Positions 1 to 36,376 of a DNA stretch of 64,000 bases are shown here, piece by piece. Each line of letters begins with the position of its first letter. Position 1 is the stretch's first letter. The DNA comes from an uncultured Erysipelotrichaceae bacterium. GTDB lineage: Bacteria > Bacillota_I > Bacilli_A > RF39 > UBA660. The stretch lies in the NCBI GenBank assembly GCA_963535465.1, contig CAUSWF010000002.1:64606-128605 (forward strand). The letters are read 5' to 3'. Position numbers and translations under genes: made by a program. The notes under the pieces are model-generated. The model was given only the letters and a program-made list of their open reading frames with translations. It did not search any database and was not told where the DNA came from.

Positions 1-1943
1 GGAGAACCTACCTGTCTTACTCTTGGTATTTTATTAGGATCTGGATAAGTAGCACGAGGTCTATTTATAAAGTATTTATAAAATCCTCTATCTCTTGCCC
101 ATGTAAGCATAGATACACGAGTTGCTTCTATATTAGCTTGACAATTATAATACATTAACATTTGCATAGCTGTTTTGTAAGCAACTCTAACATCGTCAGG
201 TCTTGCTAAATAGTAGGCTACATACATTGGTTCTTGATTTCCAAAAGCTCTTTTCTTTATAGTAATACAGAATTTAGAAGGAGATTTAGTAGCTTCAGAT
301 GTTTGATCTTGTCCTATATCAATAGAGTCAATTCCAGCTACATATAAATTTTTCATTTCTTTATAAGAAATTTTATTTCCTTCTTCATCTTCTGATTGTA
401 ATAACCATAATGGTTGCTATATTATATGAACTTCGCCTGTATTAGTTGGAATAAACTAAACATCTGTAATATTATCACACATATCCTATTTTCTTCCATT
501 ATTTGTTTTAAATATAAATTTAAATTCTCCATGTTGTACTTTAGGACCTTGCTTATGTAAACGTATCTAAGCTAACTAATCTGCAAGTAAAACCTTATTA
601 AATTTATTATCTCCTTCAAGGGCAAAGGCTTCTTCAGCAGTAAAACAATACTCAGCACAGTATGTTACTAAAGCTTTAGGATCTTTATATCTGTCTCTAT
701 GTTTTTGATAATGTTCTTTAGCTTTTACTTGGTCAACAACTCCTCTAGAATCTACCATATCAGGTAAATCTAAAGCAGAATAAGATGGAATAAAAAATCC
801 AGTAAATACTTGACTTCCATCATCAGTGTAATTATGTCTATAAGGCAATACAAGATAGGATTCTGGATCATAATATATTGTTTTTAATCCATCCAAGGCC
901 GCACCCGAGTCCCCTCCAGTACCACCTGCTATAAGGATACCCATTTTATTACCTCCAACATCTACTAAAGCTTCTCCTTGAATAAAAGATTTTAGTAAAG
1001 TCGGATTAGATCCAGCTTCTTCAAACATAACAAGTTCCGCACGATCACCTCTTACTTTTGAAGGTTTATCAGCAACAATGCCTTCAATTTGAGACTTCCA
1101 TCCATCTTCTACTTTTTGTCCATTTATTATTTTATAAAAAGAGGCTCTTTTAATATCTGCCTTATCAACAACTTGTCTTAATTTAAAAAATCCTCCATCT
1201 GTTTTATCATTTAGGAAAGTTAAAGCTCCCCATACTTTCTCTAGAGTTTTTTCTAATTTACCAGAATCAAAAGCAGTAATCATAGTAATACTATCTCTAT
1301 AACAAGAGTACTCATTAGCACATACAGATGCTAATATTTCCGAAAAACCTACAGCACGGCTTTTCATCATACATATATTTCTTCTTAATAATTTACATAA
1401 TTCTAAATAATGAAAGAACTCATACTAACATACCATAAACCGTGGAAATATATTTTTACGTGCTGTACCAGCTTTTTCTACTCTAGAATTTTTAAGTTGA
1501 TAGTAATTTAAAAAGAAATAATTACATCCTGTAATAGTATAACCATTAACAGTCATTCCATTACGGCATCTTTTATATTCTTGATTCCAGAAATCTCTGT
1601 ATAATTTAGATCCAAATTGATATTGACAATAATGTCCTGTCTTTTCAAAATTATCTCTTGCTTCTGTAAACCATGAAGGATTAAAATCGAGACCGTGTAT
1701 TGCATCTATTGGTTTATATCCACATATTTCGTAGGATTGTGTTCTATCAAAAAAAGATATAGTCTAACTAATTGGGTAATCCCATTCAAAATTAGTTCTG
1801 ACTATATCTTTCTCTATATCCTAAATAAATTCCTTTTCTTCCTTAGCTTCGGCCTGTTTTGTAGCATCTATAATAGACTAAACCTCATCAGGAAGTTTAA
1901 TTTTTCTAGGACGACCTCTTTTACGTTTTTTAATTTCTTCCAT
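1..1943 (-). CDS. terL: terminase large subunit, N-terminal ~647 codons; gene runs off the window at position 1; translated through multiple in-frame TAG codons
   Basis: ATG at 1943-1941 overlaps the upstream TAA (ATGTAATGG). Reading the minus strand gives MEEIKKRKRGRPRKIKLPDEV[TAG]SIIDATKQAEAKEEKEFI[TAG]DIEK...FPRFMVC[TAG]YEFFHYLE...MMKSRAVGFSEILASV... This continues into the listed 264-aa ORF (576..1370), which ends only at a TAG, and beyond it towards position 1. The product has a T4 gp17-like terminase ATPase/nuclease layout. The only stops in frame are TAG. Confidence 0.7.
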
Positions 1944-2485
1944 TACATATCTGTTGGTAAGAATCCATCAGTAGCACCTGCTCTAATTGCTGAGGCTTCT
2001 TGTTGCTCTTTTTGAACTTGCTGTTCTAATATTTTTAATTCATCATTTACTTTAGATATCTAAGACATTTCTTTCATAATATCAGAAACTTTATAAATAG
2101 GTTTACCTGTCTAATCATCAACTTCCATAGGATTAACAGTTTCAAAGTAAATAATAAATTTATCAACAGCCATCTAAGCAGCTTTAAGCATACGTATAGT
2201 ACGATTAGATTCTTGTATTTCTTTATATTTTCTACAAGCAGCTCTAAAAGTAGGATCATTCCATTCTTCTTCTGAAAGTCCTGCATCTTTTAAAGCTTCT
2301 TGGTGTCTATCTTGTTCTGTGTAATCTTTATAAAAAGATTCCCAGTCTATAGCTAAGTATATATATGTAAATTCTCGGTAAGCTCTTAAATGTTTCTTAC
2401 CTGTTTTATCTTCAGTGCAAACATTTCTCTTATCATCCATTAAAGCAGCAAATTCTCTAATTAAAAGAATTTGCCCTTTTTCCAA
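1943..2485 (-). CDS. hypothetical late protein (candidate small terminase subunit by position), 3 in-frame TAG codons, ends at TAA
   Basis: The listed 103-aa ORF 2174..2485 continues through TAG at 2174-2176 and two more TAGs to TAA at 1945-1943: ...MLKAA[Q]MAVDKFIIYFETVNPMEVDD[Q]TGKPIYKVSDIMKEMS[Q]ISKVNDELKILEQQVQKEQQEASAIRAGATDGFLPTDM*. It is translationally coupled to terL. Confidence 0.45.
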
Positions 2486-2535
2486 TTCTACCTAACCACT
2501 TGCATTATTGTACTGAAAAATATGTAACATTATAA

Positions 2536-3855
2536 TTATTTATTTAAATGAAGAATGCTTCTAAGTTTAACAAAATCAATATTACCTCCATTAAGACATT
2601 TCTTCATCTTTCCACCTTTTTTATCTTCTCTTACTTCAAACTGTGCTTTAGTTTTAGAAGATTGACTATTAAATTTTTTAATTAATCCTTGAAGTTCTTG
2701 TTCTTCCGCTGGAGTAAGTTTACCTTTAGCTCTTTTAGAAGTAAGTTGATACTGACGTGCATTATCTTGTTTAGTATAAGTAGGAACAACTTTTACATTA
2801 GAATTACCTGTACGCATATTTGAAACTGTAGAAGAAATTGCTTTTTTCTTAGTTTTATCTGCTGGCATTTCCATACCTTCTTCAGCAGTTCTCATTCCAC
2901 GACAAGCAGAGCATATACGACCTCCTGCTTTAAAATAATATTTATAAGTACCTTCAGGACATTCCCCTTTAATTTGTTTAATATAGTTTAATTTAGCACC
3001 AAGCTTTGCCATCTAGGTCTGTTTATTAGCTTCTTCTTGAAGATATTGTTGAAACTATTTCCAAGATTCTTCATTTGGTTGTAAATTATTAGCTTTACAA
3101 AATTCTGCAAAAGCTCTTTTAATTTCTTCGTTTTGGTCTAATTGACCTCCATTCTAATATTTCATACTATCGTTATTATAATCAAGTCTAATTCTACGTC
3201 TATCTCTAGCTCCAATATGCCCTTTAATACCTGTAGCTGCAAGATATTTTTCCCAATCTTCATCTTTACTAACATCTAATCCTCTATTTTTTAATTTAAT
3301 AGCTAAATCATTAATAAATAAATCTTTCCCCGGATTTATTAATGCGTTTCTAAATTGATCTATATTTTGTATACCATTATATCCTCTATCCATTAAAGAT
3401 CCAGATTGATTACGTAATCCTTGTCTTACAATAGCTCTATTTACTTGATTAAGTCTTGGCTATACATTTTTTCCAATTTCTGGTGTATAATTGTACACAT
3501 TAGGAGTAGTATTAAAAGAATGGTTTTCAAATTGTTCAGGAGTAGTTTTATCACCGTATCTAAATGTTTTAGCCATATTTAAAGCATTAGCTGTTTCATT
3601 TCCCCATAAACCATCTTCTTTAATATAACCTACTTCATTTCCATACATAGCATTGTACCATTTCTAAAAAGCAAGGGCATTATCAAAACCATGAGATTCT
3701 ACTCCATTATTATCCCATGTAATATTATTTAAATCTGGATTAGCATTAGCAAAAGCTTGAGCATATCCTAAACCATTATAACGACCTCTTTTAACTATTG
3801 CATTATCTTGTTTATATCTATACTAATCCCACTTTTGTACTGGTTTTTTTATCAT
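2536..3855 (-). CDS. hypothetical late/virion protein (~440 aa) with 6 in-frame TAG; C-terminal Cys-rich zinc-ribbon-like segment
   Basis: The listed minus-strand ORFs 3460..3648, 3154..3393 and 2536..3012 are in one frame, separated only by TAG codons at 3823, 3664, 3460, 3154, 3058 and 3013. The single product runs from MIKKPVQKWD[Q]YRYK... through ...GLWGNETANALN... and ...CSACRG... to ...LHLNK*, ending at TAA at 2536. Confidence 0.5.
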
Positions 3856-4065
3856 AGTTTAATTAAATCCTTAGTATTAAAAATTGCTTCCTATAATTTA
3901 TTATCTGTTGAGAACCATCTACATTTAATTCCTCGAAGAATTGGTTCTTTATCAGCATTTAGATGCTTGAATATTGTTGTTTCTTTCTTTATTACCAGCA
4001 TAGTAGGTTTATTAGGAATATCCTATTTAAGCGTTACTATATCTCCAGGCATAAAGTATATTTTA

Positions 4066-4662
4066 TCATTTATCATTATTATTAAATCTTTCTGTTAGTC
4101 CAGAGTTAAAAATAGCTATAAGACTATGTTCATTAACAAGAACAAAACCTTTACGATAAAATGGTATTATAGTTTCAGATGGTTTACGCCACATTACTAT
4201 ATCACCTACTTTAGTATAAGTGCATTTAGTTCCTACTTCCATAACTTTTCCTACTTTAATAAATGGATCTTCTTCATGCATAGCACCATCTTCTCTACTT
4301 TTATAAATAGGTGCTTTACCTCCAAGATCAACAATTAAACCATCAACTTTTTTAATTCGTTGAAAAGGATTAACTACAAAAGGAGAAATAATTATGCCTT
4401 CGTAAAGAGGTTTCATTTCTAAAGTATCTAGGTTAATGTCTTTACTATAATCTGTTAATTGTTTGTTATAATTATCTAAATTAGATAAATATTCATTTAC
4501 ATCTTCTTTATGCTTATTTTCTTTTTCTATAACAAGATCATCTATTGTTTGATCTTTATTTACTATGAAACTTTTAGAATCTTCTGAACTTACTTTGATT
4601 GCTACTTTTTCTTTATTAGACGGAGTAGTATTAACGTCTCTTCCATTAATTGTTCTTATCAT
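4066..4662 (-). CDS. GroES/cpn10-like co-chaperonin (T4 gp31-like) with N-terminal extension
   Basis: The C-terminal ~100 aa (MKPLYEGIIISPF...GLIVDLGG...FIKVGKVMEVGTK...TKVGDIVMW...EHSLIAI) follow the GroES pattern (PLgDRVlv...gGIilp...G.VvAvG.G...vkvGD.Vlf...e.dILAi). No in-frame TAG; TGA stop. Confidence 0.5.
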   Translation of the reverse strand: MIRTINGRDVNTTPSNKEKVAIKVSSEDSKSFIVNKDQTIDDLVIEKENKHKEDVNEYLSNLDNYNKQLTDYSKDINLDTLEMKPLYEGIIISPFVVNPFQRIKKVDGLIVDLGGKAPIYKSREDGAMHEEDPFIKVGKVMEVGTKCTYTKVGDIVMWRKPSETIIPFYRKGFVLVNEHSLIAIFNSGLTERFNNNDK

Positions 4663-4663
4663 A

Positions 4664-4903
4664 TTACCATTTATTACTAGGACATTTTTCTTCTTTTACA
4701 GAAGTTTTTAAATTGATAAAACATCCACATAGACCACATATTTTTTGATTATCTATTACCTCTAAATATTTACATCTATTACAATACTTTAATCTATTAA
4801 AAGAAAGCTCTTTATTTTTTCCAATAGTATAATTGAATAAACCTTTTATTATATGTTTAATTTTCGTTGGAAAATTCTCCATAATATTTTTTAGCTGCTT
4901 CAT
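4664..4903 (-). CDS. small Cys-rich (putative Zn-binding) protein, paralogue of 5474..5740
   Basis: 79-aa ORF with a CxxC...CGLCGC...KT...CPSNKW pattern shared with the ORF at 5474..5740. Confidence 0.35.
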   Translation of the reverse strand: MKQLKNIMENFPTKIKHIIKGLFNYTIGKNKELSFNRLKYCNRCKYLEVIDNQKICGLCGCFINLKTSVKEEKCPSNKW

Positions 4904-5480
4904 TCCTAGCTTTAACAGCTTCTTCTAATGTATCATAACGTCCAATATATTTAGTTTTATTATTTAATGTAATTTGGGCAGTCCACTTATTTTTATCTTT
5001 TGAAAAATATACACCTTTATGTCCAGATGTATTATTTTTTGGGACAGTACAATTACATAAATTTTGTTGGTTTGTACAAATTCTTAGATTGCATTTTCTA
5101 TTATCTAACCCATTATGATTGATATGATCTATCAATATTTTTGGATCAGTAATATTTAAAATATACCTATGCAATCTTCTAAATTGTTTATTATTAGAAG
5201 TACAATAATATGTATTTCTTTGCAGATCTGATTTATGCCATCTTATAGCTTTTACTTTTTCTATATCTTCTATATCTATTAAAGCTTTTCCACATATTTC
5301 ATTATCCCTATTTATTAAAAATATTTCAGCATGATCGTCAACTATTTCTATATGGTTTGTTTTATCTTTATACGAATATTTAAAAATTTTTCCGTATCTT
5401 CTTATTTGTGTATAATGTTTAGAACATAATCCATTAGCACAAACTTTTTTACCACATCCTTCAATTTTACATATTACCAT
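4857..5480 (-). CDS. HNH homing endonuclease with C-terminal AP2 DNA-binding domain
   Basis: HNH core ...HINHNGLDNRKCNLRI... C-terminal AP2-like segment GVYFSKDKNKWTAQIT...KYIGRYDTLEEAVKARNEAAKKYYGEF. Confidence 0.7.
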   Translation of the reverse strand: MVICKIEGCGKKVCANGLCSKHYTQIRRYGKIFKYSYKDKTNHIEIVDDHAEIFLINRDNEICGKALIDIEDIEKVKAIRWHKSDLQRNTYYCTSNNKQFRRLHRYILNITDPKILIDHINHNGLDNRKCNLRICTNQQNLCNCTVPKNNTSGHKGVYFSKDKNKWTAQITLNNKTKYIGRYDTLEEAVKARNEAAKKYYGEFSNEN

Positions 5481-5740
5481 TGTTCACAAGGGCAAACACT
5501 ATCCCTATTTTTTGTTTTATATTTTAAAACACAGCCGCATCCTTTAAAATAACCATCTTTCTTTTCTAAACTAACATCTTTTGTTTTAGGATTCATATAT
5601 AATTTAGGATTACATATTCCTCCGAACTCATCCTTATATAAAGGACATTTTTTACATATATCTATTCTTATTTTAGATATATCCTTATTAAGACCAAGTA
5701 ATTCATTTACATGACCTTTTATTATATTGCCAACTTCCAT
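5474..5740 (-). CDS. small Cys-rich protein, paralogue of 4664..4903
   Basis: 88 aa with C..C...C.C...KT...CPCEQW and the same Cys spacing as 4664..4903. The two flank the HNH-AP2 gene. Confidence 0.35.
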   Translation of the reverse strand: MEVGNIIKGHVNELLGLNKDISKIRIDICKKCPLYKDEFGGICNPKLYMNPKTKDVSLEKKDGYFKGCGCVLKYKTKNRDSVCPCEQW

Positions 5741-5776
5741 AATGTTTGTTTATTATCCTATTTTCTGATGATAATC

Positions 5777-7693
5777 TTAATATTCTATCGGTTTAAGTTT
5801 GGCTAATTTTTCTTGTTTAAAAACAGACTTTTTATAAAATTTTAGCATTGATTCTACTTCTTTCTTTAAATAAGGTAAATGATAAACTGTTTGATTATCA
5901 TTATGATCAAAGTGTACTAATATTAAATCTTTAATAGTATATTCTGGATTAATTTTTTGTAACATCCATGCATAAGTAGATAACTGTAAAGCATAATGCC
6001 AGTAATTGCAATCTTCCAAAGTGTTCAATGGATACTTCATTTTAACAGAACTACGAGTTTTAGTATCAAAGCCACTATGTTGTTTGATTTCTTTATTAGT
6101 ATTATGTGTAATTATACATTTATTAGTAACTAAAAAAGTATGTAAAGGGCTGTCTACTTCTAAACATTGTGTTGGAATAGTTTCTGTAATTTCTACTTTA
6201 TTAATATTTCTAAATGAATTTTTATCTATTTTTGGAAATTCAATTTCTTGATTTCTTATTAAAAAAGGATTTAATCCATTAGTTGAGAAACATACATCCC
6301 AAGCAATAAATTCTTTACCATTACATTTTTTTATTACTTCAAAAACAGTAGATTTTATACCTAATGTTCCTAATAATTTTACAGTACAATCTCTTTGCCA
6401 TTCTTGGCCCGTAGACATTACAAAACGTTTTCTTTTAGGATGATAATAACCATCAGTATCCATTAATCCTCTTAATAAGTCTAATCTTTGATTAAATGAA
6501 GCTGTATAATACTCTTCTGGAATATGTTTATTTTTTAAAAGATTCATTTTATTTAATAAAGTTCTTAATCCATAAACAGTCCTCATTTCAGTATTTTCTC
6601 TATCAGGATTATGTTGGGCATTTTCCCCTATATCAAAGCCACGATGTTTTAGTTCATCCCATAATTTAGATTGACTTGCTTGCGTAATAATACCACAATC
6701 TTTTGAACCATCACCTAACCAAACTCCTAATAAATAAGGATCTATTAGTAAATCTTTAGTTGGAGTATTAATAGGTTTTGGATTTAGTATTTTAGGAATT
6801 GTATAAGAATTTCTAGTATAAGTTTGCATATAATTATAAAGTTCCTTTGTAGTTATTACTCCTTTAGTATAAGGTGTTTTTTTACTTTGATTTTTAAATG
6901 ATACTTCCCAACGGTGATCTTCATCAGCTACTATAGTGTCTCCGTTATCAAAAGTTATTTTGAAGCATGGATTATTATGTATAGATGATTTATGCAAAAT
7001 TCGTGTAGGATTACCGTCTCCATCAAAAATAACATCCCCTTCTTTTACAGCTCCTATAGTAGTCCATCCAGAATTTGTTAATATTTCTGTGTCTAAAGGT
7101 AATCCTTTCCAATCCATGACTGTTATTTCATTACCTTGTTTAACTAATAAATCAATCTGTCCTGCAATTCTTAGCATGTTATCAGGAGAAGTACGAGAAA
7201 TTAAGTATTCAGGATATACTCCATTTTCTAAATCTAACGCAGTTCTTCCTTTATCGCATATAAATTTACCTCCTACACCAAATTTCTTTAGTGATACATT
7301 AGCACCCATCTTATACATACTTTGCTCTAGATCTGAATGTATTTTAGTACCTCTTTCACAAGATTCTCTATTAGTTTTATCCCATTCATCTAAAATACCT
7401 TGTTGTGCTTTATTAAAATCAAGTTCAGTAATATCATACGTACTTAAAAGTTCTTTAGGTATTTTGTGTGTATTCAACAAAGATTTTCTTTCTATTTTCC
7501 AAGCATCTGAGGGAATTAACTTTTCTAATGCCTTATATCCAGACCAAAAATCTTTATCAAAGGGTTGAGCAAACTTTTCTATTAAAGTTGTTACTGAAAT
7601 AAATCTATCATTTGTATCTGTATTCCAGTATACATGGTCATTTTCACTGAATGCAATGCTTCCATTCTGTTTGTCTATTTTCATATTATTCAT
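5777..7693 (-). CDS. PD-(D/E)XK exonuclease (lambda-exo / YqaJ-like) interrupted by a LAGLIDADG intein
   Basis: N-extein (aa 1-196) ...SVTTLI...GQIDLLVKQGNEITVMDWK. C-extein (aa 532-638) TNKEIKQHSGFDTKTRSS...YWHYALQLSTYAWML, typical of phage-type exonuclease motif III and the C-terminal Q/Y motif. Between them is a 335-aa Hint + LAGLIDADG insertion. No TAG codons. Confidence 0.65.
   Translation of the reverse strand: MNNMKIDKQNGSIAFSENDHVYWNTDTNDRFISVTTLIEKFAQPFDKDFWSGYKALEKLIPSDAWKIERKSLLNTHKIPKELLSTYDITELDFNKAQQGILDEWDKTNRESCERGTKIHSDLEQSMYKMGANVSLKKFGVGGKFICDKGRTALDLENGVYPEYLISRTSPDNMLRIAGQIDLLVKQGNEITVMDWKGLPLDTEILTNSGWTTIGAVKEGDVIFDGDGNPTRILHKSSIHNNPCFKITFDNGDTIVADEDHRWEVSFKNQSKKTPYTKGVITTKELYNYMQTYTRNSYTIPKILNPKPINTPTKDLLIDPYLLGVWLGDGSKDCGIITQASQSKLWDELKHRGFDIGENAQHNPDRENTEMRTVYGLRTLLNKMNLLKNKHIPEEYYTASFNQRLDLLRGLMDTDGYYHPKRKRFVMSTGQEWQRDCTVKLLGTLGIKSTVFEVIKKCNGKEFIAWDVCFSTNGLNPFLIRNQEIEFPKIDKNSFRNINKVEITETIPTQCLEVDSPLHTFLVTNKCIITHNTNKEIKQHSGFDTKTRSSVKMKYPLNTLEDCNYWHYALQLSTYAWMLQKINPEYTIKDLILVHFDHNDNQTVYHLPYLKKEVESMLKFYKKSVFKQEKLAKLKPIEY
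6101..7105 (-). mobile_element. intein (Hint domain with two LAGLIDADG motifs) inserted directly after the catalytic Lys of the exonuclease; residue 1 is Gly rather than Cys/Ser
   Basis: Block A GLPLDTEILT (canonical CLxxDTxIxT with G in place of C). Block B DTIVADEDH. LAGLIDADG motifs LLGVWLGDGS and LLRGLMDTDGYY. C-terminal VTNKCIITHN followed by +1 Thr. Confidence 0.6.
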
Positions 7694-8379
7694 TTACATA
7701 TTTTTTTATATTATTATAATCTAGTATTGCTGCTAACTTAGAAATTTCTGGACCTATAACTACTGGATAATAAGGCATCTTATACTCTTTCTTCTTTTTA
7801 TAAAGTATTATTATTAATCCAATAGGACTATTACTTCCTGCTATAGGATAAAAAGCAGCAGCTCTAGCATTACTTGCTAAAAGTTTATTGTAAAATTTTG
7901 GCATAGAATATTTAATAGAATCTATATTATTTACTCTTAATAGAGAGTAATTATTTATTTTCTATAACTCATCTATATAATAAACATATTCAAGTTCATG
8001 CCATTCTCTTTTTGTTTCTTGCGAATCTATGCCTCTAGTCTTCTCAGTAAGGCAATTTAAATACTAGTAACTAAAACCTTGTAAACTTCTAGTTGAATTA
8101 TGATAACTTAAAAGTATTACATTTGTAGCATCAGGATCTTTATCAAGTATTGCCTAAACACTTCTATCTATTTCTGGAGCCATTTTAAGAGTATACTTTT
8201 CAGCTTCCTACTTATCATTCTCCATAGATTCAGCCCATTGTTTAATGCTGTTTTTGTTTTCAGAAATTATATAATTTCCGAGGCACCATCCTAATAATCC
8301 AATTATAATTACAGTTTTTGTTTGTGTGCCCAAACTATCTAAAAATTCCCAAATCTTTTTTATTAATTTTAATTTCATT
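7686..8379 (-). CDS. membrane-anchored late protein (~230 aa) with N-terminal TM helix, 4 in-frame TAG
   Basis: ATG at 8379-8377: MKLKLIKKIWEFLDSLGTQTKTVIIIGLLGWCLGNYII... It continues through TAG codons (8213, 8156, 8069, 7969) into the listed 72-aa ORF 7686..7904 and ends at TAA. Confidence 0.45.
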
Positions 8380-8560
8380 AAATTTTTAATTAATACTTTT
8401 TATTAAGCTTTTACTTCCTTTCAAATCTTTACGCAAATCTTAATTCTAAATATAATAAATAAACTTACTAAATTTTGAACTAAACAAATTTAATAATATT
8501 TTTACAGTAATCAAATTTAGAGATATAAATTATAACAATTTTTATAAATACGTTTATAAT

Positions 8561-9330
8561 ATGGCAGTAAATAATAGTATTTACAATAACAAAAATCCTA
8601 ATATTAAATATAATATTTAGAATTTATTTACTACGGCTAAAATTGCTTCTTTATTAAAGAAAGGAGGTAATGTACATAGAACAGATATATTTCCAGGGGT
8701 TATAGATACTAATGCTAATTTTGATAATATGAGTCCTAGGAAAAAAAGAAAAAAGATTAAAAAACATCAAGATGGAGGAGAAATAGAAGTGGTTGAATAT
8801 AATCCTGTAGTATTATCTTTAAAAAAATTAGATTATCCAGAACTAAATAATATTAATACTAAAACTTTAGATATATCTGGATTATCTTTTGATAAATTTA
8901 CTCCACCTTCTATAAATAATATGCGCGTATAGGAAAATTATCCTATAAATCCAAATATTAGTTTAGAAGATTTATTAAAACAAGAAGGAGTAAATGCAAA
9001 AGTTTCTTCTGGTTATAGAAAGGGAGCAATATCAAAAAATGGACATAAAAGTAATCATAGTCATTTAAATTCTGATGGAACTCCAGGAGCTTATGATATA
9101 GTTCCTAATGATGGTAACTTTGAAAATCTTAGAAAGGAGATATATGGTAATCCACGTATAGTTGCATGGCTTAAAGCTAAAGGTTGGGGTATTTTAGAAG
9201 AAACTACTCCTAATATTATGAGAAAAACTGGAGCTACAGGTAAACATTGGCATTTTGGTCCTGATACTGCAGCCTTAGATATGTCTAGATAGAATGGAAT
9301 TAATTATACTAAATTAGGAGGTTTATTATG
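8561..9330 (+). CDS. M15-family (VanY/L-Ala-D-Glu-type) zinc peptidase, likely virion-associated peptidoglycan peptidase; 3 in-frame TAG
   Basis: The ATG at 8561 is in frame with the listed ORF 8729..8932. The frame continues past TAG at 8618, 8930 and 9284 to TGA at 9328. Motifs: SGYR, HSHLNSDGTPGAYD (H...D zinc ligands) and terminal GKHWHFGP. Confidence 0.65.
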
Positions 9331-10470
9331 ATAGAAACTACAAAATATGATAATATAGATCAGTAGTTTGAATATCCAGATTTACCAAGTATTAATAATT
9401 CTAATAATACTATAATAGCAGATGAGGCTACTGAAAATTATCTTAGGGCTGTTCAAAATGAATATGCTTTAAAGGCTTAGAGAGATAAAGAATTATGGGA
9501 ACAACAATAGAACGTTAAAAATAATTAGCCTAATTAGTAGTATTCATTTACAGATAATAATATACCTCAAATAAGTAGTTCTAATAAACAAGGATCTTAG
9601 AAAGTAAAAGAAATACTTGATAATATGATACATGATCCTACTAAAAAAACTATATTGTTAAAAATTGCAGAAAAAGAATCTAATTTTAAAATAGATGCTA
9701 AAAATGCTAAAAGTTCTGCTAGCGGTTTATTTGGATTTTTAAATTCAACTAAACAAAAATATGGTTATGGTAATACTGCTGAATAGTAGATTTAGGGAGC
9801 ATCTAAATTATATGATGCTCATGCTACTTAGTTATAGTAGTATATAAATAAATATGGAACTAGAGGTAAATCAATAACTTAGTTAATGTATGGTATGTGG
9901 TTTAGACCTACTTCTTTACTTCATTATTTACAAACAGGTCAAGATGATTATAAAGATGCACAAGGAACTAGTTTAGAAAAAATATTTGCAAAAATGGCTA
10001 AAAATGGAGGAATATTAAAAGCATAGGATGGAATAATAATTCCAAAAGCTCCTAATACATTTAGATAGTATGGAATAGATCCTAATAAGTTTGTTAATAT
10101 GTGGAACGGACTTGTTAATAAAGGAATATCTCCACAAGTAGCATTTGATGCTACATGGCAAGCTAATAAAGAAGTTCCTAAAGGATATTATTCATATGGA
10201 AAAAAGAAACCTAATCTCAATAGTTGGGTAGAAGCTGCTTCAGATAGTTTAACCACAGGAGCATATAAAAAAGCAAAGAATGCTTAGAATTTTGATTAGT
10301 ATAGATAGGCTACTTTTAAATATAATAAAAATCCAGAATATACTAATTGGTTAAAAACTAATAGATAGGATGCTGTTAATTTTATAAACAGATATAGACA
10401 ACAAAACGGAATAGTAGGTAAACCTATAGCTTAGCTTATCCCAGTAACTTAGATAATTAATAACGTATGA
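9328..10470 (+). CDS. lytic transglycosylase (SLT-domain) protein, Q-rich, ~20 in-frame TAG
   Basis: ATG overlaps the previous TGA (ATGATAG). The SLT catalytic motif is LLKIAEKESNFKIDAKNAKSSASGLFGFLNSTKQKYGY. The frame is closed only by TGA at 10468-10470. Many TAGs sit within Q runs (WEQQ[*]NVKNN[*]PN[*][*]YSF). Confidence 0.6.
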
Positions 10471-10748
10471 TAAAGAATTTTATAAAAAGTATGTTACTAG
10501 CTACTCAAGGATCTATAAGTTCTAAAAGAGTTTGTGGAGTTCTTGGTTGGTTAGTATGTTTAGGTATTTGTATTTACTGTACAGTTGGTTAGATACAAGC
10601 TCCTATACTAGCAGACAGTGTTCTTATAGGTAGCGCAGCATTAATGGGCGTAGATAGTGTTACAGGTATATGGAAAAATAAAAGAGATATAAATATTATA
10701 AAAGAAAATGAAACTAATGTAGAACAAAATAATAGTTTAGTATAATAA
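10467..10748 (+). CDS. holin-like small membrane protein (2 TM), 1 in-frame TAG
   Basis: ATGA overlap start. 93 aa: MIKNFIKSMLLATQGSISSKRVCGVLGWLVCLGICIYCTVG[Q]IQAPILADSVLIGSAALMGVDSVTGIWKNKRD... It lies between the peptidoglycan-hydrolase genes. Confidence 0.45.
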
Positions 10749-10750
10749 AT

Positions 10751-13183
10751 ATGACTCAAATAAAATTTGATAAATCTAAAAAATATTATGATAGTAAATT
10801 AAATAAATACTATGGTTAGGGTATTTGGTTTAAGGATACTAATGATGATGGTAAATATAATGAAGGAGAATCTTTAATTCCTATGGGAAATAGAATTAAA
10901 AATTCTAATAATTCTTATGTACAATTAAATTCTGATGGAAGTAGAACTTTATTATATTCTAAAGGTAAATTTACTAATACTAATATTTCAAATGTAGATA
11001 AATAGGCTATATCTAAAGGATTAATATATGGACGCAATGCTTCTTTACAAAATAATAAATATGTAAGATCTAATAATGGCATAAGTAATTGGGATATAGA
11101 TACAGTTAGACAAAAAAATAAAGATGGAAGTTATACAGATATTAATAATAATACATCTTTTATATATAATAAAAATAAATATATTGGAACAGCTGGCAGT
11201 AAAAATGTAATAGATTTATATCATAACGTAGTAAGTAATGATGGAGGTAAAACTTGGTCTAGAAATTCTACAACTCAAAAATCTGTAAGTCCTTTTATTA
11301 CAAGACGCTATGGTACATAGCCTTTAGGTTAGTATTTAAATCCAGATACTAATATTAAAACAAATTATGCTGAAGTTAATTTTGGAGATACTAATGGTTA
11401 GAATCAATATTTAAAAAATAATTATTGGGTATATGATGATGGTAATGGTAATGTTCAAACTATCGGATTTAGGTATAAAGATGGTAAAGATTATGCGTTT
11501 TTATCAGACGATAATAATTTTTTAAATGATAATGTTTCTGGTATTTTAAAATCTAAATAGAGTATAGGTTCATCTAAACTTAAATCTTATAGTGCTGGTT
11601 TTACTCCAGGTATGGAAAAATGGAGAGGAAAAGGTGGATGGTATACAAATGTAGGATAGGATCTCCCCGATATAGTATACGGTGCTAAAGATGGTTATTT
11701 ATATAATAAACAAGGATAGCAAATAGGATTTAATGCAAATGGTACTTATTATTTAAAAAATAATATTATTGCTTCTGAAGAAAAACCTACATTTAAGAAT
11801 ACTTTAGTAAATGGGTGGTCTGGCTTAGTACAAGACTTTAGTAATTTAAGTTCTAGATTTGATCCTTCTAATAATTAGGGTTTCCAAAATAGATTTACTG
11901 GAATATTTGGAGATTTAGGTAGAGGAATACAGCATGCTGCATAGGGTACTGTAGGGGCATTAGCTACTGCTATTATTCCAGATAGTTTGAATGAAACCAT
12001 AGGTAAGTATGGTTAGATTACCGATATAGGAAAAGATTTAAGAAGTATAACTAGTTTATTTGGTAATGGGAAATTTGTTACACCTTGGGATTAGGATAAC
12101 CATGGCCTTGTTGATTACGCAGATATAATTGGCAACAAACAAGGTCTTCAAGATATAAACGATGCATTAAATGGAGCAACTGTTTTAATCGGAACTAAAG
12201 GATTAGGCACAACAAAAGAAGTTTTAAAAGGAACACTGCAGGGAACAAAAGCTATGAGGTTTACTGAAGCTGCTCTTAAAGGAGCAAAAAATACTTCTAA
12301 AAATATATATTCAAATGGAGCATATTATACAGGAAAAGCAGGATTACGTCCAAGTAATATTACTCCTATGATTAATGCTGTTAAACAAGGTTTTAAAAAT
12401 GCACGTACTTATTATGAAGAATCTGCTCCAGTAGTAACAAAACCAACAATAGTTGAGTCTAAACCAGTAACAGCAGGTACAAAATAGTATATACAACCTA
12501 CAATAAAAAAACTTAATCCAAATAAAGGTGCTGAAGTAGTATATAATATGAAATTTAATCCTGTTTAGGAAGCTTAGAATATAATGGCTAAACCTAAATT
12601 TATATTTAAAGAAAATTCTATAGTACATGTTCCTAAAGGATTACCTGTAAAAGTAGAATAGCCTGTACTAACATAGCAACCTGTTGTTAAACCGTCTGTA
12701 CAAAAAATTCCTAAAACTGCACCTAAACAATTAACTTTAGAGTTTGTGGAAGATAAACCTAAATATGTACAACCTATATTAAAACAGCTTAATGATGCTA
12801 AAAAAGCTGAAATTGCAAGTAAAATAGTTCCTATAGATTATGCAAATGTAGCACATACTATAATGTAGTCTAAACCTACTATATAGCTTCCAGAATTTAG
12901 ATTTTCTTCTAAATTTAATCCTGTTTCTGAAGCTAAAGCTAGAACAGTTAGTAATACTTCAAATGTAGGAAATATTCCTAATAAAAATATTAAGTATGTA
13001 GAAAGTCAACCTACAGTTAATAATTCTAAAATACTACAGTGGAAGCAAGCTAAAGAAATTAAAGCAGTACCTAAAACAATGAAACCTAAAAGTAAAAGTA
13101 AAATATTGAAAAAAGTAAATAAAAAATATTTAGGTGGAATTTTAAATAATAAATTTAATAATTGGATAAATGCAAATAACTAA
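10751..13183 (+). CDS. large virion protein (~810 aa; tail fibre / receptor-binding candidate), ~23 in-frame TAG
   Basis: One frame is continuous from ATG 10751 to TAA 13181-13183 once TAG is read through, and it contains the listed ORF 12254..12487. Asn/Gly/Tyr-rich beta-like composition. Internal repeats KFNPV(Q/S)EA near the C-terminus. No recognisable catalytic motif. Confidence 0.5.
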
Positions 13184-13697
13184 TTTTATAAAATATATAT
13201 AGAGTTGGGAAGGAGGTTATGCTAATATACCTCAAGATAGTGGAGGTCCTACTAATAAAGGAATTACCCTAACTACTTTCCGATCTATATTTGGGCAAAA
13301 CAAAACAATAGATGATTTAAAGAAAATGACAGATGAGCAATGGTGGAAAGTATTTAAAACTAAATTTTGGGATAAATACAAAGCAGATAATATTAAAGAT
13401 GAATGGTTAAGATATTTATTAGTAGACTGGTTATGGTGTTCTGGTCAATGGGCTATTACTAAAGTTTAGAAATTACTGGGATTAAATCCAGATGGAATTG
13501 TCGGAGACAGAACTATAACAGCTATTAATAGTAAAAATCCTAAACAATTATTTGATACTATTTGGAAGATGAGAGAAAAATTCCTTCAAGATATTTCTAA
13601 AGGTAAGAATAGTATATTTTTAAAAGGATGGCTTAGACGTCTTAATGGGCTTAAATATGGTTATTTAGTAACTAGTAATAATAAAATATTAAAATGA
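13170..13697 (+). CDS. endolysin: GH108-family lysozyme N-domain plus PG_binding_3 C-domain; 2 in-frame TAG
   Basis: MQITNFIKYI[Q]SWEGGYANIPQDSGGPTNKGITLTTF (GH108 'EGGY...D.GG.T..GIT' motif) ...WAITKV[Q]KLLGLNPDGIVGDRTITAIN (PG_binding_3 'LQxxLG..DG..G..T'). Ends at TGA 13695-13697. Confidence 0.7.
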
Positions 13698-13924
13698 GTT
13701 TTATAACAAATTTTAAAGAATCCAATAGGTATAAACACTTTTGGTGTGCTATACCTATTGGATTAATTTTTACTATACTTTGTGTTATTGGGTGTGCAGG
13801 AGGTATGGAATTTAAAGATAAACAATATAGTAATTATTGGGATTGGAAAGATTTTGGATTTACTGTATTAGGAGGATTTGTCGGACAGATATTATAGATT
13901 ATATTAATATTAATTTTATTATAA
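13694..13924 (+). CDS. small 2-TM membrane protein (holin/antiholin-like), 1 in-frame TAG
   Basis: MSFITNFKESNRYKHFWCAIPIGLIFTILCVIGCAGG...FGFTVLGGFVGQIL[Q]IILILILL*. The listed ORF 13694..13897 stops at a TAG; the true stop is TAA at 13922-13924. Confidence 0.4.
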
Positions 13925-15273
13925 TGCCAAAACCTTTTGATTTAGATTTACATAAAAGTTATAATGTAAATAATAAAAGTAAAAATTATAAGTCCTTTAC
14001 TGGGGCTAATGGAGAATTATGGTATACTGATAGACCTTTAATTACTTATAATAATAGTAAATTAGCTTATGTAACTAACGGAAGAAATGCTAGATGGGTT
14101 ACTGTTGGAAATGAATTTAATACTTAGCCTTAGATGTTATCTAGAGAACAAGCTGTAAAACGAGATCTTAATAAACCTAGAATACAAGCAGCTAATGATT
14201 TAACTTAGGGTTTAACTGATCTTATTACAGGAGGAATGGCTGGATCATTAAGAGAAGGGGCTTAGAATCTTACTAAAGGTAATTATATTAAGGGTATTTC
14301 ATAGTTAGCTACACCTGCCATGTTTGGATCTGGAATTGCAGGAAATATAGCAAGAGCAGGTGTCGGATCTTATAATTTATTAAATGAAGATAGAGTTAGA
14401 AAAACATATAAATATATTAATAATAAGGAATATGGGAATGCTGCTGTTTCTGGATTAGGAGATATTTTAAATGGAGGTATGGCTATACATGGTGGTACTT
14501 AGTTATTTAAAAACTACAGAATAGTTGAACCTAAATTATTAAGTGCTAATTTAAATAATAAAAATATGCCATATTACTCTTAGTTTGAATAGTAGGAAGC
14601 ATAGCAACATATGATATCTGATATAAAAAGAGGTTATTAGAATTTTAAAGATTGGATGACGAATCCTCATTATTTAGAATCTACTTTAGACAACATGGAA
14701 GAAGCTAAAAGAATGGGTTTAAAATATACACCTACTTATGATAAACCTCATTATAAAGCACTAATGTAGAACGGTATTAAAATTAATTTTAAGAAATAGA
14801 TGCAGGGTAATGGTGCTACTAGTTAGTTTGGTGCATAGGCCGGACATCCTGCTGAAGTTGATTTAAATTTAGGATCACCACAATCATTTTTTAATACTGT
14901 AAGACATGAATCTGGGCATGCTGCTTATCATGGTAATGGGTTAACTCCAGATGAACTTAAATATTTAAGATTTAAAACTCATTAGGCTTTTATAGATAAG
15001 GCTGAGGCTGGTCCTTATGATTTTCATTAGTAGACTGGTGAAGCTGCTATGAACGGTAGAGATTTAGGACATGATTTAGGAATATCTGTAGGACAATCTT
15101 ATCCAGGATATTAGAAAGCTTTAGAAACATTAAATTCAGGACTAGGCAAATCTACAAAAGATGGAATGATTAAATTATTTAAAACAGATGAACAATCTAT
15201 GCCTTATGTATGGAAATTACTTAATGGTACTTTACTAGGAGGAGCTTTAGTAACTAAATTTAATAATAAATGA
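13924..15273 (+). CDS. virion/lysis-associated protein (~449 aa) with HExxH zinc-metalloprotease-like motif; ~20 in-frame TAG
   Basis: ATG 13924 (taATG overlap). The frame contains the listed ORF 14320..14502 and ends at TGA 15271-15273. Motif ...SFFNTVRHESGHAAYHGNG... (HExxH). Confidence 0.45.
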
Positions 15274-15278
15274 ATAAA

Positions 15279-15313
15279 GGCGAGCATCAATTAAGATGTT
15301 CGCCTTTCTTTTT
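15279..15313 (+). terminator. rho-independent terminator closing the recoded late block
   Basis: GGCGAGCATC-aattaa-GATGTTCGCC: a 10-bp stem with one G.U pair, followed by TTTCTTTTT. Confidence 0.6.
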
Positions 15314-15782
15314 AAATTTAAAATTATGAAAAACTTTATTAATTTCTTTTTCTAGATCTTCTTTTATTTTTCTATTAATTCTATCAGCAATTTCTTGCTA
15401 CCTAATACATATTTTCCAAGAAGATTTTTCATTTTCTATCTGGATCTATTGATAGTTTATTTAACTCATCTTGATAATCTAAAAACCAAGATTCGTCTAA
15501 ACATTTATTATCTGTACATAACTTTCTAAATGTATATAAATTCTTAATTAAAAACTTAGAAAGTTTCTTAAGTATTTTAATTTTTAATTTCATCCAATAA
15601 TTTTTGTTTCCAAAATAAATATTCTTTTGAATTTTCTAGTTTATGTAATTTAAAGAATTTCTTTATTCTTTTTATATTCTTTATACTATGATATAGTTTA
15701 TTCTTATAACATTCTGAAATTTCATCATTAGATACATTAAAATACTTACAAAGTTTAATCATTAAGTGGTATACTAACATAG

Positions 15783-15870
15783 TTGCCTCGCTAGGATTCG
15801 AACCCAGATTGACGCCCTCAGAAGGCTACAGATTTAGAGTCTGCCGTAATAACCATTATACTACAAGGCA
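15783..15870 (-). tRNA. amber suppressor tRNA, anticodon CUA, class II (long variable arm, 87 nt); anticodon arm matches bacterial tRNA-Tyr
   Basis: Reverse complement: tgccttg-ta-gta/taatggttat/tac-g-gcaga/CT[CTA]AA/tctgt-long variable arm-ctggg/ttcgaat/cctag-cgaggca-A73. The anticodon stem-loop GCAGA CUCUAAA UCUG(U) differs from the E. coli tRNA-Tyr arm (GCAGA CUGUAAA UCUGC) only at position 34 and the closing pair. Confidence 0.65.
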
Positions 15871-15876
15871 TTAAAG

Positions 15877-15948
15877 TTATCCCACTAGGATTCGAACCCA
15901 GACTAAGAGGGTTAGAGCCTCCTGTGCTAGCCGTTACACCATAGGACA
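15877..15948 (-). tRNA. amber suppressor tRNA, anticodon CUA, class I (72 nt), tRNA-Gln-derived
   Basis: Reverse complement: tgtccta-tg-gtgt/aacggcta/gcac-a-ggagg/CT[CTA]AC/cctct-tagt-ctggg/ttcgaat/cctag-tgggata-A73. U1:A72, D-arm, 4-nt variable loop and T-arm closely parallel the phage tRNA-Gln(UUG) at 31788-31858. Confidence 0.65.
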
Positions 15949-16134
15949 ATAAATGTGGGAGCCGCCCACTTAATAAAATAAAAGATTTATTGGCTAAATA
16001 ATCTTAATTATTAAAATACTCAATCACCATCCTTTATATTCTCCTTAAGTATTTTAATTTCTTCACTTAGTATTGCTAAAGCATGTCTTGCTTGAAATAA
16101 TCTATTTTCTAATTCAGAAAATATTTTATCTTTA

Positions 16135-16503
16135 TTAATCATTTAAATACGTTACTAAGCGTTTTATTTCTGCACGTACTGTGTTATGTACTACAGTTTT
16201 AAACATATCAAGTACTTCGCTTGCAGTATTGTTTAAATTCCACTCATTGAGGGTTTTACCTGTTTGAGTTTCTACTTGCTCACAAGCTTTATTGAAAACA
16301 TCATCATCTAAATTATTTAAATAATCCTTAAGTTCTTTAGCAGATTTAAGTTCACTTTCATCACCAACTAACTTAATTGATATTGTTCCGTCTTCCTTAT
16401 TAATTTCATCTACTTTATAAGTAATGCCATCAATAATATAATTTTCCTCTTCTATACTATTTTCGGCAATACTATTAATTAAATTTTGTAATACTTCTTG
16501 CAT
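16135..16503 (-). CDS. hypothetical protein (acidic, 122 aa)
   Basis: Intact ORF with no TAG, same strand as the adjacent helicase-like gene. Confidence 0.4.
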   Translation of the reverse strand: MQEVLQNLINSIAENSIEEENYIIDGITYKVDEINKEDGTISIKLVGDESELKSAKELKDYLNNLDDDVFNKACEQVETQTGKTLNEWNLNNTASEVLDMFKTVVHNTVRAEIKRLVTYLND

Positions 16504-16707
16504 GTTTATTATTTAATTTTTAACTGTTACAATTATATATAAATATTAATTTATTACCAAATATAAAATGTTAATTTTTGTTGTTTTGTACTAAATTTTC
16601 TAATTTTAAAATTCTTTCTTTAAGCGACTTAATATCATTAGTATTCTTTTGTATTCTCTGTTCATGATTCTCAAGAACAGATATAATTTCTTGGTTTATT
16701 TCTTTTT

Positions 16708-18180
16708 TCATAATATAAATTTATAAATAGTTACTCTTTTATAATCTACTTGTTTTCTTGTCTTTTTAAATTCAGGAAAAAATGATTTTATTGTATTATT
16801 ATTCCATGTAAGTTGGTGTTCTTTTAATAAAGGTTTAAATATTTCCTGTATTTCATCTGAAGTATATTCTGATTTATTCAGTTCTACTAATTTATTATAT
16901 ATAAAAGGCAAGCCATGTTTAATTTTACTTGTAGCAATATTTGGTGTAAATGAATATTCCTCTGCTTCTTTTAATACTGCTAAACTATCAGAATAAATTT
17001 CACTAATTAAATCGTAGTTATATAGATCCAGTTTTCTAAGATTATCATCGTAAAATATCTTATCATTATGTTTATTAAGATATAAATTATAATAAGTATC
17101 TTTACTAAATAATTTTAATTCAGTTATATAATCATCAGCATCTAATTTATCTGTAAGTTCTGCTTTTCGTATACCTCTTCTTCTGGAATCTTCTACTAAA
17201 TTTAGAAAGTCTGTTTTAATAGTTCCTGCATATCTATGTTTATTTGTATTTAATATAAGTATACATTCATCTTTATATTTAGAATCTCGAAGTCGTCCAC
17301 ATACTTGTCTAACTTTAGTAGCTATATCTAATACTGTATTAGATACATTAGTATCTGATAATATTATACATAATCCATTTTTATCGTAAATATCACATCC
17401 TTCAAAAGCACATGATGTATAAAAATTTAAATGTTTTACTTCTGAATTTACTTCTGCATAATTACGTATTTTATTTTTACTATTTACTGAGCATACTACT
17501 CTATAATCTGGATTATCTAATTTTTTAATGATCGCATTTATTGTAGCTATAGAATTTAAAAATATATGTAAGTTTCTATCTTTATACATATCTATAATAT
17601 ATAATAATTCTTTCTGCACATAAAAAGTATCTCGAATATTTAGTTTAACAGGAACAGAATTTTGCCATTCATATGTAATTTGAGGTATATCCTTTAACTC
17701 TTCTAAAATACATTCAGGCTTAAGCGGAGTAGCTGTTAAGAATGCCCAATCTTTAAATTTATTAAAGTTTTGAAGAATATTTACAATAGCATCATTTCTA
17801 AAACTATAATCATTAAATAATAAGTGATATTCATCTATTAGTAAAAAATAATCTGGATAATTAGGAATTAACTCCATAAGTCTTGGAAGAGAATCATATG
17901 TAGCTATAATCTTTTTATATTCTAATGCTTTCTTTAAATAATTTTTAATTACTGTATTACCTACATCTCCCGTAACTCCTAGAACATTATCATTTGATTT
18001 AGATATTACTAAATTTTTAGTAGGACTAAGTATTAAACTATTCCGCCTAGCATTGATTTCAAGAGTTGTTCCGCCACAACCTGTGATTCCTTTATTAATA
18101 AGACAGTGTGATGGTAATTCATTAATTATATCTGATAAATATTGACACTTTTTGTCAATTAAAATTTTTTCATTTTGCAT
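16708..18180 (-). CDS. superfamily-2 DExH-box helicase-like ATPase
   Basis: P-loop GITGCGGTT, DExH-like LLIDEYH, motif III LTATP. 490 aa, no TAG. Confidence 0.5.
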   Translation of the reverse strand: MQNEKILIDKKCQYLSDIINELPSHCLINKGITGCGGTTLEINARRNSLILSPTKNLVISKSNDNVLGVTGDVGNTVIKNYLKKALEYKKIIATYDSLPRLMELIPNYPDYFLLIDEYHLLFNDYSFRNDAIVNILQNFNKFKDWAFLTATPLKPECILEELKDIPQITYEWQNSVPVKLNIRDTFYVQKELLYIIDMYKDRNLHIFLNSIATINAIIKKLDNPDYRVVCSVNSKNKIRNYAEVNSEVKHLNFYTSCAFEGCDIYDKNGLCIILSDTNVSNTVLDIATKVRQVCGRLRDSKYKDECILILNTNKHRYAGTIKTDFLNLVEDSRRRGIRKAELTDKLDADDYITELKLFSKDTYYNLYLNKHNDKIFYDDNLRKLDLYNYDLISEIYSDSLAVLKEAEEYSFTPNIATSKIKHGLPFIYNKLVELNKSEYTSDEIQEIFKPLLKEHQLTWNNNTIKSFFPEFKKTRKQVDYKRVTIYKFIL

Positions 18181-18636
18181 ATTTTTAAAATTTTAAATTT
18201 ATTAGTACTTAAGTATGAAAAAAGGTTCTCGTGTCAAACCTTAATATTATAGTGCCAAGACAAAATCGGGATTGTGTCAAGACATATCTTGTGCAGTAAC
18301 CAAGACAATGCTAAAGTAAATATATTATTTTTATTTTCAAATTATATTTTTAATTTTAACATTTTTTTATTTAATCTTTCCCCCCCCATTTTAAAAATGT
18401 AGTTCGTTTTAAATTTATTATAATATCGTATAAACGAGAGTATAATTAAAAAATTTATAAGTTATATGAGAGAGAGTCCACTCCCTTCGGTCGCCCCCCG
18501 CCTATCGTCGTGGGAAAATAGTCTACATTTATAAACTCCTATATGAATTTAGGGGATTGAACATTAAAAGATTGTTTAATCCAGGCTAAGTACGCATGCC
18601 TTAAATTGCGCACACCTCAAAAAGGATTAAGACTTA

Positions 18637-18942: not shown

Positions 18943-19067
18943 GGACGTGTGGGACTTTGGTTTAGGCAATACCAAAGGTTGTAGATAAAATTGCAGCTGA
19001 GCTAAAGGAGTGGTAGCTTTATGTCCACTCCGTAGTTTATAATTCTTTTATAAACTTTAATAAAATC

Positions 19068-20537: not shown

Positions 20538-20607
20538 GTCTCTGTCCTGAGCATGACATTAAAAGGCTCTTTCTTTTTTAATATAAACACTTTAAAAAAA
20601 TACAATT

Positions 20608-36273: not shown

Positions 36274-36376
36274 CTTTAGTTGGCTACTGACTACAAAATA
36301 GTAGATGACTTCTAGGGCCGTTCAACATGTAAACAACCTAGGTAATGGCATACCTGTTAAAATCAAAGCATGCTAA

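Follow-up and report, generated by a model that had tools for sequence, protein, structure and literature searches.

The 64,000-nucleotide (nt) window analysed here, positions 64,606 to 128,605 of contig CAUSWF010000002.1 from an assembly assigned to an uncultured Erysipelotrichaceae bacterium, very probably belongs to a distant crAss-like phage that uses TAG as a glutamine (Gln) codon in its late genes, by means of two suppressor tRNAs of its own and as a timed suppression of the stop codon, not a fixed change of the code. This reading is based on the distribution of TAG, the identity of the encoded amino acid, the suppressor tRNA genes and a replication module free of TAG. Recoding of TAG to Gln in late genes, together with phage-encoded suppressors, has been described in crAss-like and other gut phages (PMC7886860; bioRxiv 10.1101/2021.08.26.457843). 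As such recoding is already well described for phages of this kind, the finding in the window is correct but not new; the part that goes beyond known recoding is a suppressor tRNA with a long extra arm.

TAG as a sense codon in the late block

To survey open reading frames (ORFs), stop-to-stop frames were listed with TAG allowed as a sense codon, and TAG was then counted in ATG-started gene models. The long ORFs obtained in this way from positions 1-15273 contain many in-frame TAGs, while those of 16-64 kb contain almost none. In total, 12 ORFs of 1-15273 hold 92 in-frame TAG codons. Positions 1950-15313 have a coding density of 45% under translation table 11, which rises to 94% once TAG counts as sense, so that the table-11 gene model does not reach an equal density. 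Reading TGA as sense in a control leaves the density of the same region at 45%, and between 18.2 and 64 kb the values are 74% (table 11) and 75% (TAG sense). TAG makes up 2.5% of the late codons and none of the 11,665 early codons. Off-frame TAG is alike in both sets (0.029 per position in late genes and 0.026 in early genes), demonstrating that the signal is frame-specific and not compositional in this DNA of 27.9% GC. An earlier note on this DNA, made from its letters, had claimed that TAG is read as sense across the late block and had proposed the comparison with table 11; both the claim and the comparison hold up. Its count of only four ORFs of at least 60 amino acids on a stretch of the plus strand does not, as six ATG-started ORFs of this size are found under table 11 in 8459-15313.

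The first TAG of each late ORF falls at codon 11-68, so that without suppression just short stubs would be made. Sense TAGs are distributed evenly along the late genes, and the base at position +4 is no different from that after other codons (p = 0.57). All TAG-carrying ORFs that end within the window stop at TAA or TGA (one, encoding the large terminase subunit TerL, runs past the window start), which follows from the way the ORFs were constructed and is not independent evidence.

Related genomes were retrieved with TerL. Four of them (L002-L005, contigs of up to 166 kb) are 93-96% identical, and a more distant set (L006-L009, one contig of 176 kb) shows 51-58% TerL identity. L012 (MT835470), with 44% TerL identity, gives little sign of recoding. 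The four close relatives are independent assemblies and carry identical TAG positions, and these TAGs are thus not sequencing errors. Under table 11 the block does look like a string of broken genes, as if the TAGs were damage in pseudogenes, in a defective phage or in a faulty assembly. This explanation is hardly credible: the frames are interrupted by TAG only, never by TAA or TGA, the TAG positions and the protein sequence are kept in at least four independent assemblies, and matching suppressor tRNAs are encoded adjacent to the block. In L004 and L005 an ORF beyond TerL (12583-14757, 724 amino acids) contains 29-30 in-frame TAGs, indicating that the late block reaches beyond the left edge of the window.

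The genes of the block are listed with their in-frame TAGs; E denotes the expectation value of a match.

1-1943, minus strand: TerL, first 647 amino acids; 9 TAG; phrog_6681, E 4e-62, amino acids 61-634, alignment spanning the TAGs
1943-2530, minus strand: 195-amino-acid protein; 4 TAG; phrog_16390, E 3e-7; conserved in L002-L009 and L012
2536-3855, minus strand: 439-amino-acid protein; 6 TAG; no family match
3852-4076, minus strand: 74-amino-acid ORF; 2 TAG
4066-4662, minus strand: GroES-like protein; 0 TAG; phrog_3188, E 2.5e-5
4857-5480, minus strand: homing-endonuclease-like gene with HNH and AP2 domains; 0 TAG; AP2 E 2e-7, HNH_3 E 2e-4
5777-7693, minus strand: PD-(D/E)XK-type nuclease with a LAGLIDADG intein of about 335 amino acids; 0 TAG; weak Pfam matches
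7686-8378, minus strand: 230-amino-acid protein with a hydrophobic N-terminal segment; 4 TAG
8561-9331, plus strand: 256-amino-acid protein; 3 TAG
9328-10470, plus strand: candidate SLT-like transglycosylase; 22 TAG; Pfam SLT E 5e-4; phrog_4067, E 8e-6
10467-10745, plus strand: 92-amino-acid holin-like ORF with a hydrophobic segment (hydrophobicity scan); 1 TAG
10751-13183, plus strand: 810-amino-acid protein ('fibre-like'); 19 TAG; no family match
13170-13697, plus strand: endolysin with GH108 and PG_binding_3 domains; 2 TAG; Pfam E 5e-21 and 2e-10
13694-13924, plus strand: 76-amino-acid holin-like ORF with two transmembrane segments; 1 TAG; overlaps the endolysin stop
13924-15273, plus strand: 449-amino-acid protein with an HESGH motif seen in the translation; 19 TAG; no family match

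The TAA stop of 1943-2530 overlaps the ATG of TerL. The matches to phrog_6681 and to Pfam bear out the labels TerL and GH108 that had been given from the sequence. The SLT label is weak, and the Pfam SLT match is present when TAG is entered as X and lost when TAG is entered as Q. The label M15 peptidase for 8561-9331 is not supported, as this protein has no match in Pfam, PHROGs or the PDB. Searches of the same three databases gave nothing significant for the HExxH, 810-, 439- and 230-amino-acid proteins either.

Both matches of the HNH-AP2 gene lie under Pfam's own cut-offs, and the ORF lists of L004 and L005, which were read without a sequence search, contain no 200-amino-acid ORF at the matching place. 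The 300-amino-acid L004 ortholog of the nuclease aligns to amino acids 4-196 and 532-638 only and lacks the intein. This intein (amino acids ~197-531) begins with Gly (GLPLDTEIL) and not with Cys or Ser, and it ends in IITHN, followed by T.

Glutamine as the meaning of TAG

At the TAG positions of the window most close relatives carry TAG as well, and otherwise CAA (9 cases), CAG (3), AAA or AAG (3), TCT (2) and single occurrences of other codons. The order TAG, CAA, CAG also holds across L002-L009 and L012. CAA is two substitutions away from TAG, which points to a synonymous exchange of Gln codons and not to mutational neighbourhood. A likelihood ranking of amino acids based on substitution frequencies from the same alignments places Gln first in every set, with a margin of 7 log units for L002 (5 positions) and of 9-38 log units in the others; it widens to about 320 log units if L005 serves as the query.

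This is further supported by conserved sites. TerL TAG173 (in the motif C-TAG-YEFF) lies 21 residues before the Walker-A-like segment KSRAVGFS and corresponds to CAA or CAG in six relatives, in line with the earlier suggestion that this TAG occupies a Gln site. TerL TAG456 corresponds to CAA or CAG in four relatives. The residue in database homologs is Q in 119 of 119 cases for TAG173 and in 118 of 119 for TAG456, counts that are partly circular, as the 16 in-frame TAGs of the gene of P0001 are all written Q and public gene calls of the lineage of the window already translate TAG as Q. The case for Gln therefore rests on the codon-level data. In the endolysin, the three solved bacterial homologs (2nr7, 7dnp and 2ikb) all have Q opposite TAG100, and the Gln site assigned to this TAG of the PG_binding_3 domain on the basis of the letters is thereby confirmed. 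Taken together, codon comparison, likelihood ranking and conserved sites support the proposed reading of TAG as a Gln codon in the late genes, as judged from sequence comparison.

With TAG counted as Gln, the late genes contain 5.7% Gln, and TAG provides 43% of their Gln codons. Its share rises from 28% in TerL to 61% in the SLT-like and 73% in the HExxH gene. The share is thus highest in genes of the lysis region, which matches the bias toward recoding published for lysis-related genes (bioRxiv 10.1101/2021.08.26.457843).

We consider it quite unlikely that TAG stands for an amino acid other than Gln, or for a mixture of Gln with Tyr, Leu or Ser. A few TAGs of the window are indeed matched by Ser, Lys, Trp or Leu in relatives, and the TAGs of L008 most often face Ser of the window phage. 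Tyr, Leu and Ser nevertheless score far below Gln, which is first in all likelihood tests, and the roughly 100 aligned codons include one TAT and few TTA or TCT. The Ser signal of L008 comes from six positions counted against four near-identical genomes. The structures of the suppressor tRNAs, which bear on the same question, are treated below.

As an observation in its own right, the TAGs of both L007 and L008 most often align to Ser of the window, and in L008 Ser lies slightly above Gln. Ser may thus be considered as a meaning of TAG in these two distant relatives; L007 overall favours Gln, and the signal of L008 is weak and pseudo-replicated.

Two suppressor tRNAs and the long-arm family

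Two tRNA genes with the anticodon CUA lie 5 nt apart just past the end of the late block. They are listed here with the tRNA-Gln gene of the phage.

15876-15948, minus strand: suppressor tRNA 1, anticodon CUA; ARAGORN; Rfam 54.1 bits; short ordinary variable loop
15782-15870, minus strand: suppressor tRNA 2, anticodon CUA, 89 nt; ARAGORN; Rfam 57.7 bits; 17-nt extra arm in the variable region
31788-31859, plus strand: phage tRNA-Gln(UUG); shares U1-A72, A73 and the type of D-arm with the suppressors

The minus-strand ORFs that flank both suppressor genes have no in-frame TAG. Suppressor 1 is 92% identical to tRNAs annotated as tRNA-Gln in the crAss-like phages cr7_1, cr124_1 and others, and the 'tRNA-Gln' copy of cr7_1 also bears the anticodon CTA. 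Within the window, the tRNA nearest to suppressor 1 is Gln(UUG).

ARAGORN labels both tRNAs 'Pyl', which could be taken to favour an amino acid other than Gln; this label reflects the CUA anticodon only. An identity as tRNA-Pyl, which has an atypical architecture, was rejected, as each of the two matches the standard tRNA model from end to end and has a normal 5-base-pair (bp) anticodon stem. No pyl-related families were found among the ORFs scanned with Pfam.

The same alternative could draw on the length of suppressor 2 and on its 17-nt insertion, which resembles the long arm of class II tRNAs. Its D-arm is, however, of the class I type with a 4-bp stem, and U1-A72 is present in eight of the nine variants of the family described below. 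In several of these variants the acceptor stem is UGGGGUA/UACCCCA, and the D-arm is near that of the window tRNA-Gln. In a 13-kb contig (L045), where the long-arm type is the sole suppressor found, Gln is the best assignment for TAG by 49 log units.

Long-arm suppressors were found by pattern scans of a viral collection in more than 15 viral contigs and give nine distinct aligned variants. The loci of the family include:

window: 15782-15870
L020: 8759-8847
L031: 2031-2120
L033: 10166-10253
L044: 303-391
L045: 103-192
L047: 5232-5319
L052: 681-768
L053: 737-826
L054: 6304-6391

Most loci with a long-arm suppressor are strongly TAG-recoded. A near-identical gene occurs in phages that over this locus are otherwise unlike the window, among them one on a contig of 396 kb. 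In the cloverleaf alignment of the nine variants 98.6% of the cells are paired, and 11 pairs show compensatory changes. From variant to variant the acceptor, D and T stems differ, with changes in one strand compensated in the other, but the extra arm is nearly invariant. It consists of a 3-bp stem (GCC/GGC) that closes a 7-nt loop of the form Y-U-(C/U)-U-G-A-N. The loop is mostly UUCUGAG (as in the window), CUCUGAA or CUCUGAC, which gives the 'anticodon' CUG. In L033 it is CUUUGAA, giving UUG; this sole 'wobble' change, from C to U, still yields a Gln anticodon. The arm loop CUCUGAA and the working anticodon loop CUCUAAA differ only at position 36.

When the extra arm was searched for with no constraint on its loop, no tRNA carrying another loop came up. 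Exact-pattern scans of 185,579 representative genomes gave no cellular tRNA with the extra arm and one chance match that is not a tRNA; several of the viral pattern matches are not tRNAs either. The family has thus been seen in viral contigs only. We found no mention of a variable arm on suppressor tRNAs in the literature on phage recoding.

The bodies of the long-arm suppressors are tRNA-Gln-like, judging by the acceptor stem and D-arm noted above for several variants. The window tRNAs nearest to suppressor 2 are Glu and Gln, and there is no likeness to the Ser and Tyr tRNAs available in the window and the loci. A class II identity (Ser, Leu or Tyr) was rejected for suppressor 2, as the 4-bp stem and small loop of its D-arm are like those of tRNA-Gln. 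Its anticodon arm resembles that of E. coli tRNA-Tyr; a Tyr identity was rejected on account of the D-arm, of the acceptor stem and of what the alignments show.

We put forward as a tentative idea, about which we remain doubtful, that the loop of the mini-arm is a copy of the Gln anticodon with G36 that is shown to a phage factor or to the components that charge the tRNA, so that the tRNA is charged with Gln and decodes UAG. The copy would in this way make up for the G36 missing from the CUA anticodon. Candidate partners of the mini-arm would be glutaminyl-tRNA synthetase (GlnRS), glutamyl-tRNA synthetase together with an amidotransferase, or a factor of the phage, for example the YqeY-like protein described below. 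In view of the geometry of GlnRS binding, a simple reading of the mini-arm in cis is uncertain. Whatever its role, the extra arm adds support for the assignment of Gln.

In E. coli supE, whose tRNA-Gln body has acquired the anticodon CUA through a change at position 36, the suppressor inserts Gln at UAG and is charged with Gln in the normal way. The window suppressors likewise have a tRNA-Gln-like body with a CUA anticodon. Unlike supE they are encoded by a phage and in two copies, one of which adds the mini-arm showing an unmutated Gln anticodon loop. The phage phAss-1 has several tRNA-SUP-CTA genes, its TAGs align to Gln in TerL, and no dedicated synthetase was found (PMC10607447). The window resembles it in having more than one amber suppressor gene, Gln-aligned TerL TAGs and no dedicated synthetase found. 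It differs in that phAss-1 is a member of an unrelated group of phages, for which a Bacillota host is predicted, and the description of phAss-1 mentions no extra arm on the suppressors (PMC10607447).

Overall, the phage genes of the window include 12 tRNA genes and a transfer-messenger RNA (tmRNA). Further elements with a possible bearing on decoding are:

61413-61922, plus strand: free-standing YqeY-like protein; 0 TAG; PF09424, E 1e-21; PDB 8xjg, 1ng6
35955-36276, plus strand: tmRNA; Rfam 72.8 bits; tag frame AKVIPMNSFAVRIAA with stops TAA TGA, not TAG
25268-25353, plus strand: tRNA; Rfam 42 bits, missed by ARAGORN; long variable arm and unusual T-arm

The YqeY domain is the domain found at the end of GatB. 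The YqeY-like protein is a candidate helper in the handling of tRNA-Gln or of the suppressors, which we offer only as a suggestion. In Deinococcus GlnRS a YqeY domain raises the affinity for tRNA-Gln, and does so only when fused to the enzyme (PMC1865053). The window gene, which is YqeY/GatB-like, resembles an amidotransferase-like gene of phage Lera (PMC12386605). No catalytic subunit of an amidotransferase was found among the window ORFs scanned with Pfam. The tmRNA might rescue ribosomes that have passed a TAG stop of a host gene. For the tRNA at 25268-25353 the anticodon loop UUGCUAA suggests Ser(GCU). Rfam (E up to 0.1) detected only the two suppressor tRNAs in 15300-23000; the search covered Rfam models and not the theta-ribozyme descriptor (PMC10879173).

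Early genes, phage affiliation and the two uses of TAG

None of the 73 ORFs between 18 and 64 kb needs readthrough of TAG, and four of them end in TAG. The earlier remark that none of the translated genes ends in TAG thus stands for the late block, where the construction of the ORFs ensures it, and does not extend to this region. The four ORFs each have a further in-frame stop 0-20 codons downstream.

53649-55193, plus strand: exonuclease, early or middle, ends in TAG; phrog_284, E 1e-16
28767-29540, plus strand: ORF ending in TAG
42041-42400, plus strand: ORF ending in TAG
42512-42847, plus strand: ORF ending in TAG

The orthologs of the exonuclease end at the same codon, with TAG-TAA at three loci, TAG at one and TAA at one, which shows that TAG is a genuine terminator there. 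One and the same genome therefore uses TAG in two ways, to terminate early genes and to encode Gln in late ones. As TAG still terminates at least one early gene, timed suppression is indicated and not full reassignment, and the term 'reassignment' used earlier was too strong. A full reassignment of TAG in the pair of phage and host, through a genome-wide code 15 or a TAG-sense host and with no temporal switch, would suit the rarity of TAG as a terminator (4 of 73) and the additional stop within 0-20 codons of each. It is very unlikely in our view, as the TAG end of the exonuclease coincides with TAA or TAG-TAA in the orthologs, the split of in-frame TAG between late and early genes has no reason under a uniform code, and the hosts published for such phages are standard-code Bacteroidota (bioRxiv 10.1101/2021.08.26.457843).

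The TAG-free replication genes are:

43834-45105: ResIII/DEAD (SNF2) helicase
45814-46872: DnaB_C
46880-47575: AAA_24
48935-49951: Toprim primase

The region of 42-59 kb also holds two exonucleases, NrdD and NrdG, none of which has an in-frame TAG. A peptidoglycan hydrolase with a glucosaminidase domain (38088-38606, plus strand; PF01832, E 2e-17) is likewise free of TAG, unlike the recoded lysis genes. Between 18000 and 22000 an island of 36-37% GC lies inside the 28% GC genome. The island ORFs 19068-19688, 20028-20534 and 21928-22461 have no matches in Pfam or PHROGs, and Rfam found nothing there.

The window probably comes from a distant crAss-like phage of about 160 kb, which would represent a deep branch. 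Among the tblastn matches listed for TerL, two unclassified gut phages show 44-50% identity, Crassvirales 27-29% and Flavobacterium phage Fpv1 24%. The replication block contains a primase, DnaB and SNF2 helicases and an AAA ATPase, as expected for crAss-like phages. Genes for a crAss-type capsid, portal and giant RNA polymerase would lie beyond TerL, outside the window. As in crAss-like phages of code 15, TAG is limited to packaging, virion and lysis genes, the replication genes are TAG-free, TAG aligns to Gln, recoding is strongest in the lysis region, a tRNA(CUA) is present and the GC content is low (28%). The window departs from published crAss-like phages in a TerL that is only ~28% identical to those of named Crassvirales and in two tandem suppressors, one of which has an extra arm.

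The Zeta crAss-like group is characterized by genomes of 145-192 kb, many introns and inteins and many tRNAs (Yutin et al. 2021, PMC7886860; PMC12386605). The window phage appears to share features with this group: the contigs of its relatives are 157-176 kb long, and it has many tRNAs, an intein and a homing-endonuclease-like gene, the replication block and the YqeY/GatB-like gene. No named Zeta genomes are among the TerL matches listed from the phage collection. In two other crAss-like phages the recoding of TAG to Gln was verified by metaproteomics (Peters et al. 2022, PMC9523058).

According to the published model, early genes use the host code and late genes become translatable after the suppressor has been made (PMC7886860; bioRxiv 10.1101/2021.08.26.457843). 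For the window phage we infer the timing, the charging by host enzymes and the regulatory purpose. The early and replication genes, being TAG-free, would be translated by unmodified host machinery, and before suppression each late ORF would terminate early at its first TAG. The suppressor tRNAs would then accumulate and be charged with Gln by the Gln-charging system of the host, and ribosomes would read through the 92 TAGs to produce late proteins of full length. Late in infection the four TAG-ending early or middle proteins would receive short C-terminal extensions.

Several observations sit less easily with this picture of timed suppression by Gln-inserting tRNAs. Three genes inside the block, 4066-4662, 4857-5480 and 5777-7693, are free of TAG, so that block position alone does not dictate recoding, and the earlier statement that every late gene is broken by TAG applies to the 12 TAG-containing ORFs and not to these three. 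One of them, the nuclease gene, shares its strand and a short overlap with a TAG-containing gene, and the two may be co-transcribed. TAG11 of the GH108 endolysin faces L, F and L in distant homologs and CAG in close relatives. Among 38 larger ORFs outside the TAG-containing genes, Pfam detected neither a release factor nor an aminoacyl-tRNA synthetase.

For annotation, the region must be translated with TAG as Gln, as otherwise half of the late genes would go missing. The window provides a clean example of a two-code genome in which the boundary between the codes adjoins the suppressor tRNA genes. Late-gene recoding has already been described as a translational timer for lysis and assembly, a picture to which the window adds nothing new. 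If the proposal for the mini-arm is true, an arm that mimics the Gln anticodon would show how a phage has answered the identity problem posed by a tRNA that has to be charged despite an altered anticodon, and the long-arm suppressor would represent a natural design for efficient amber suppressors.

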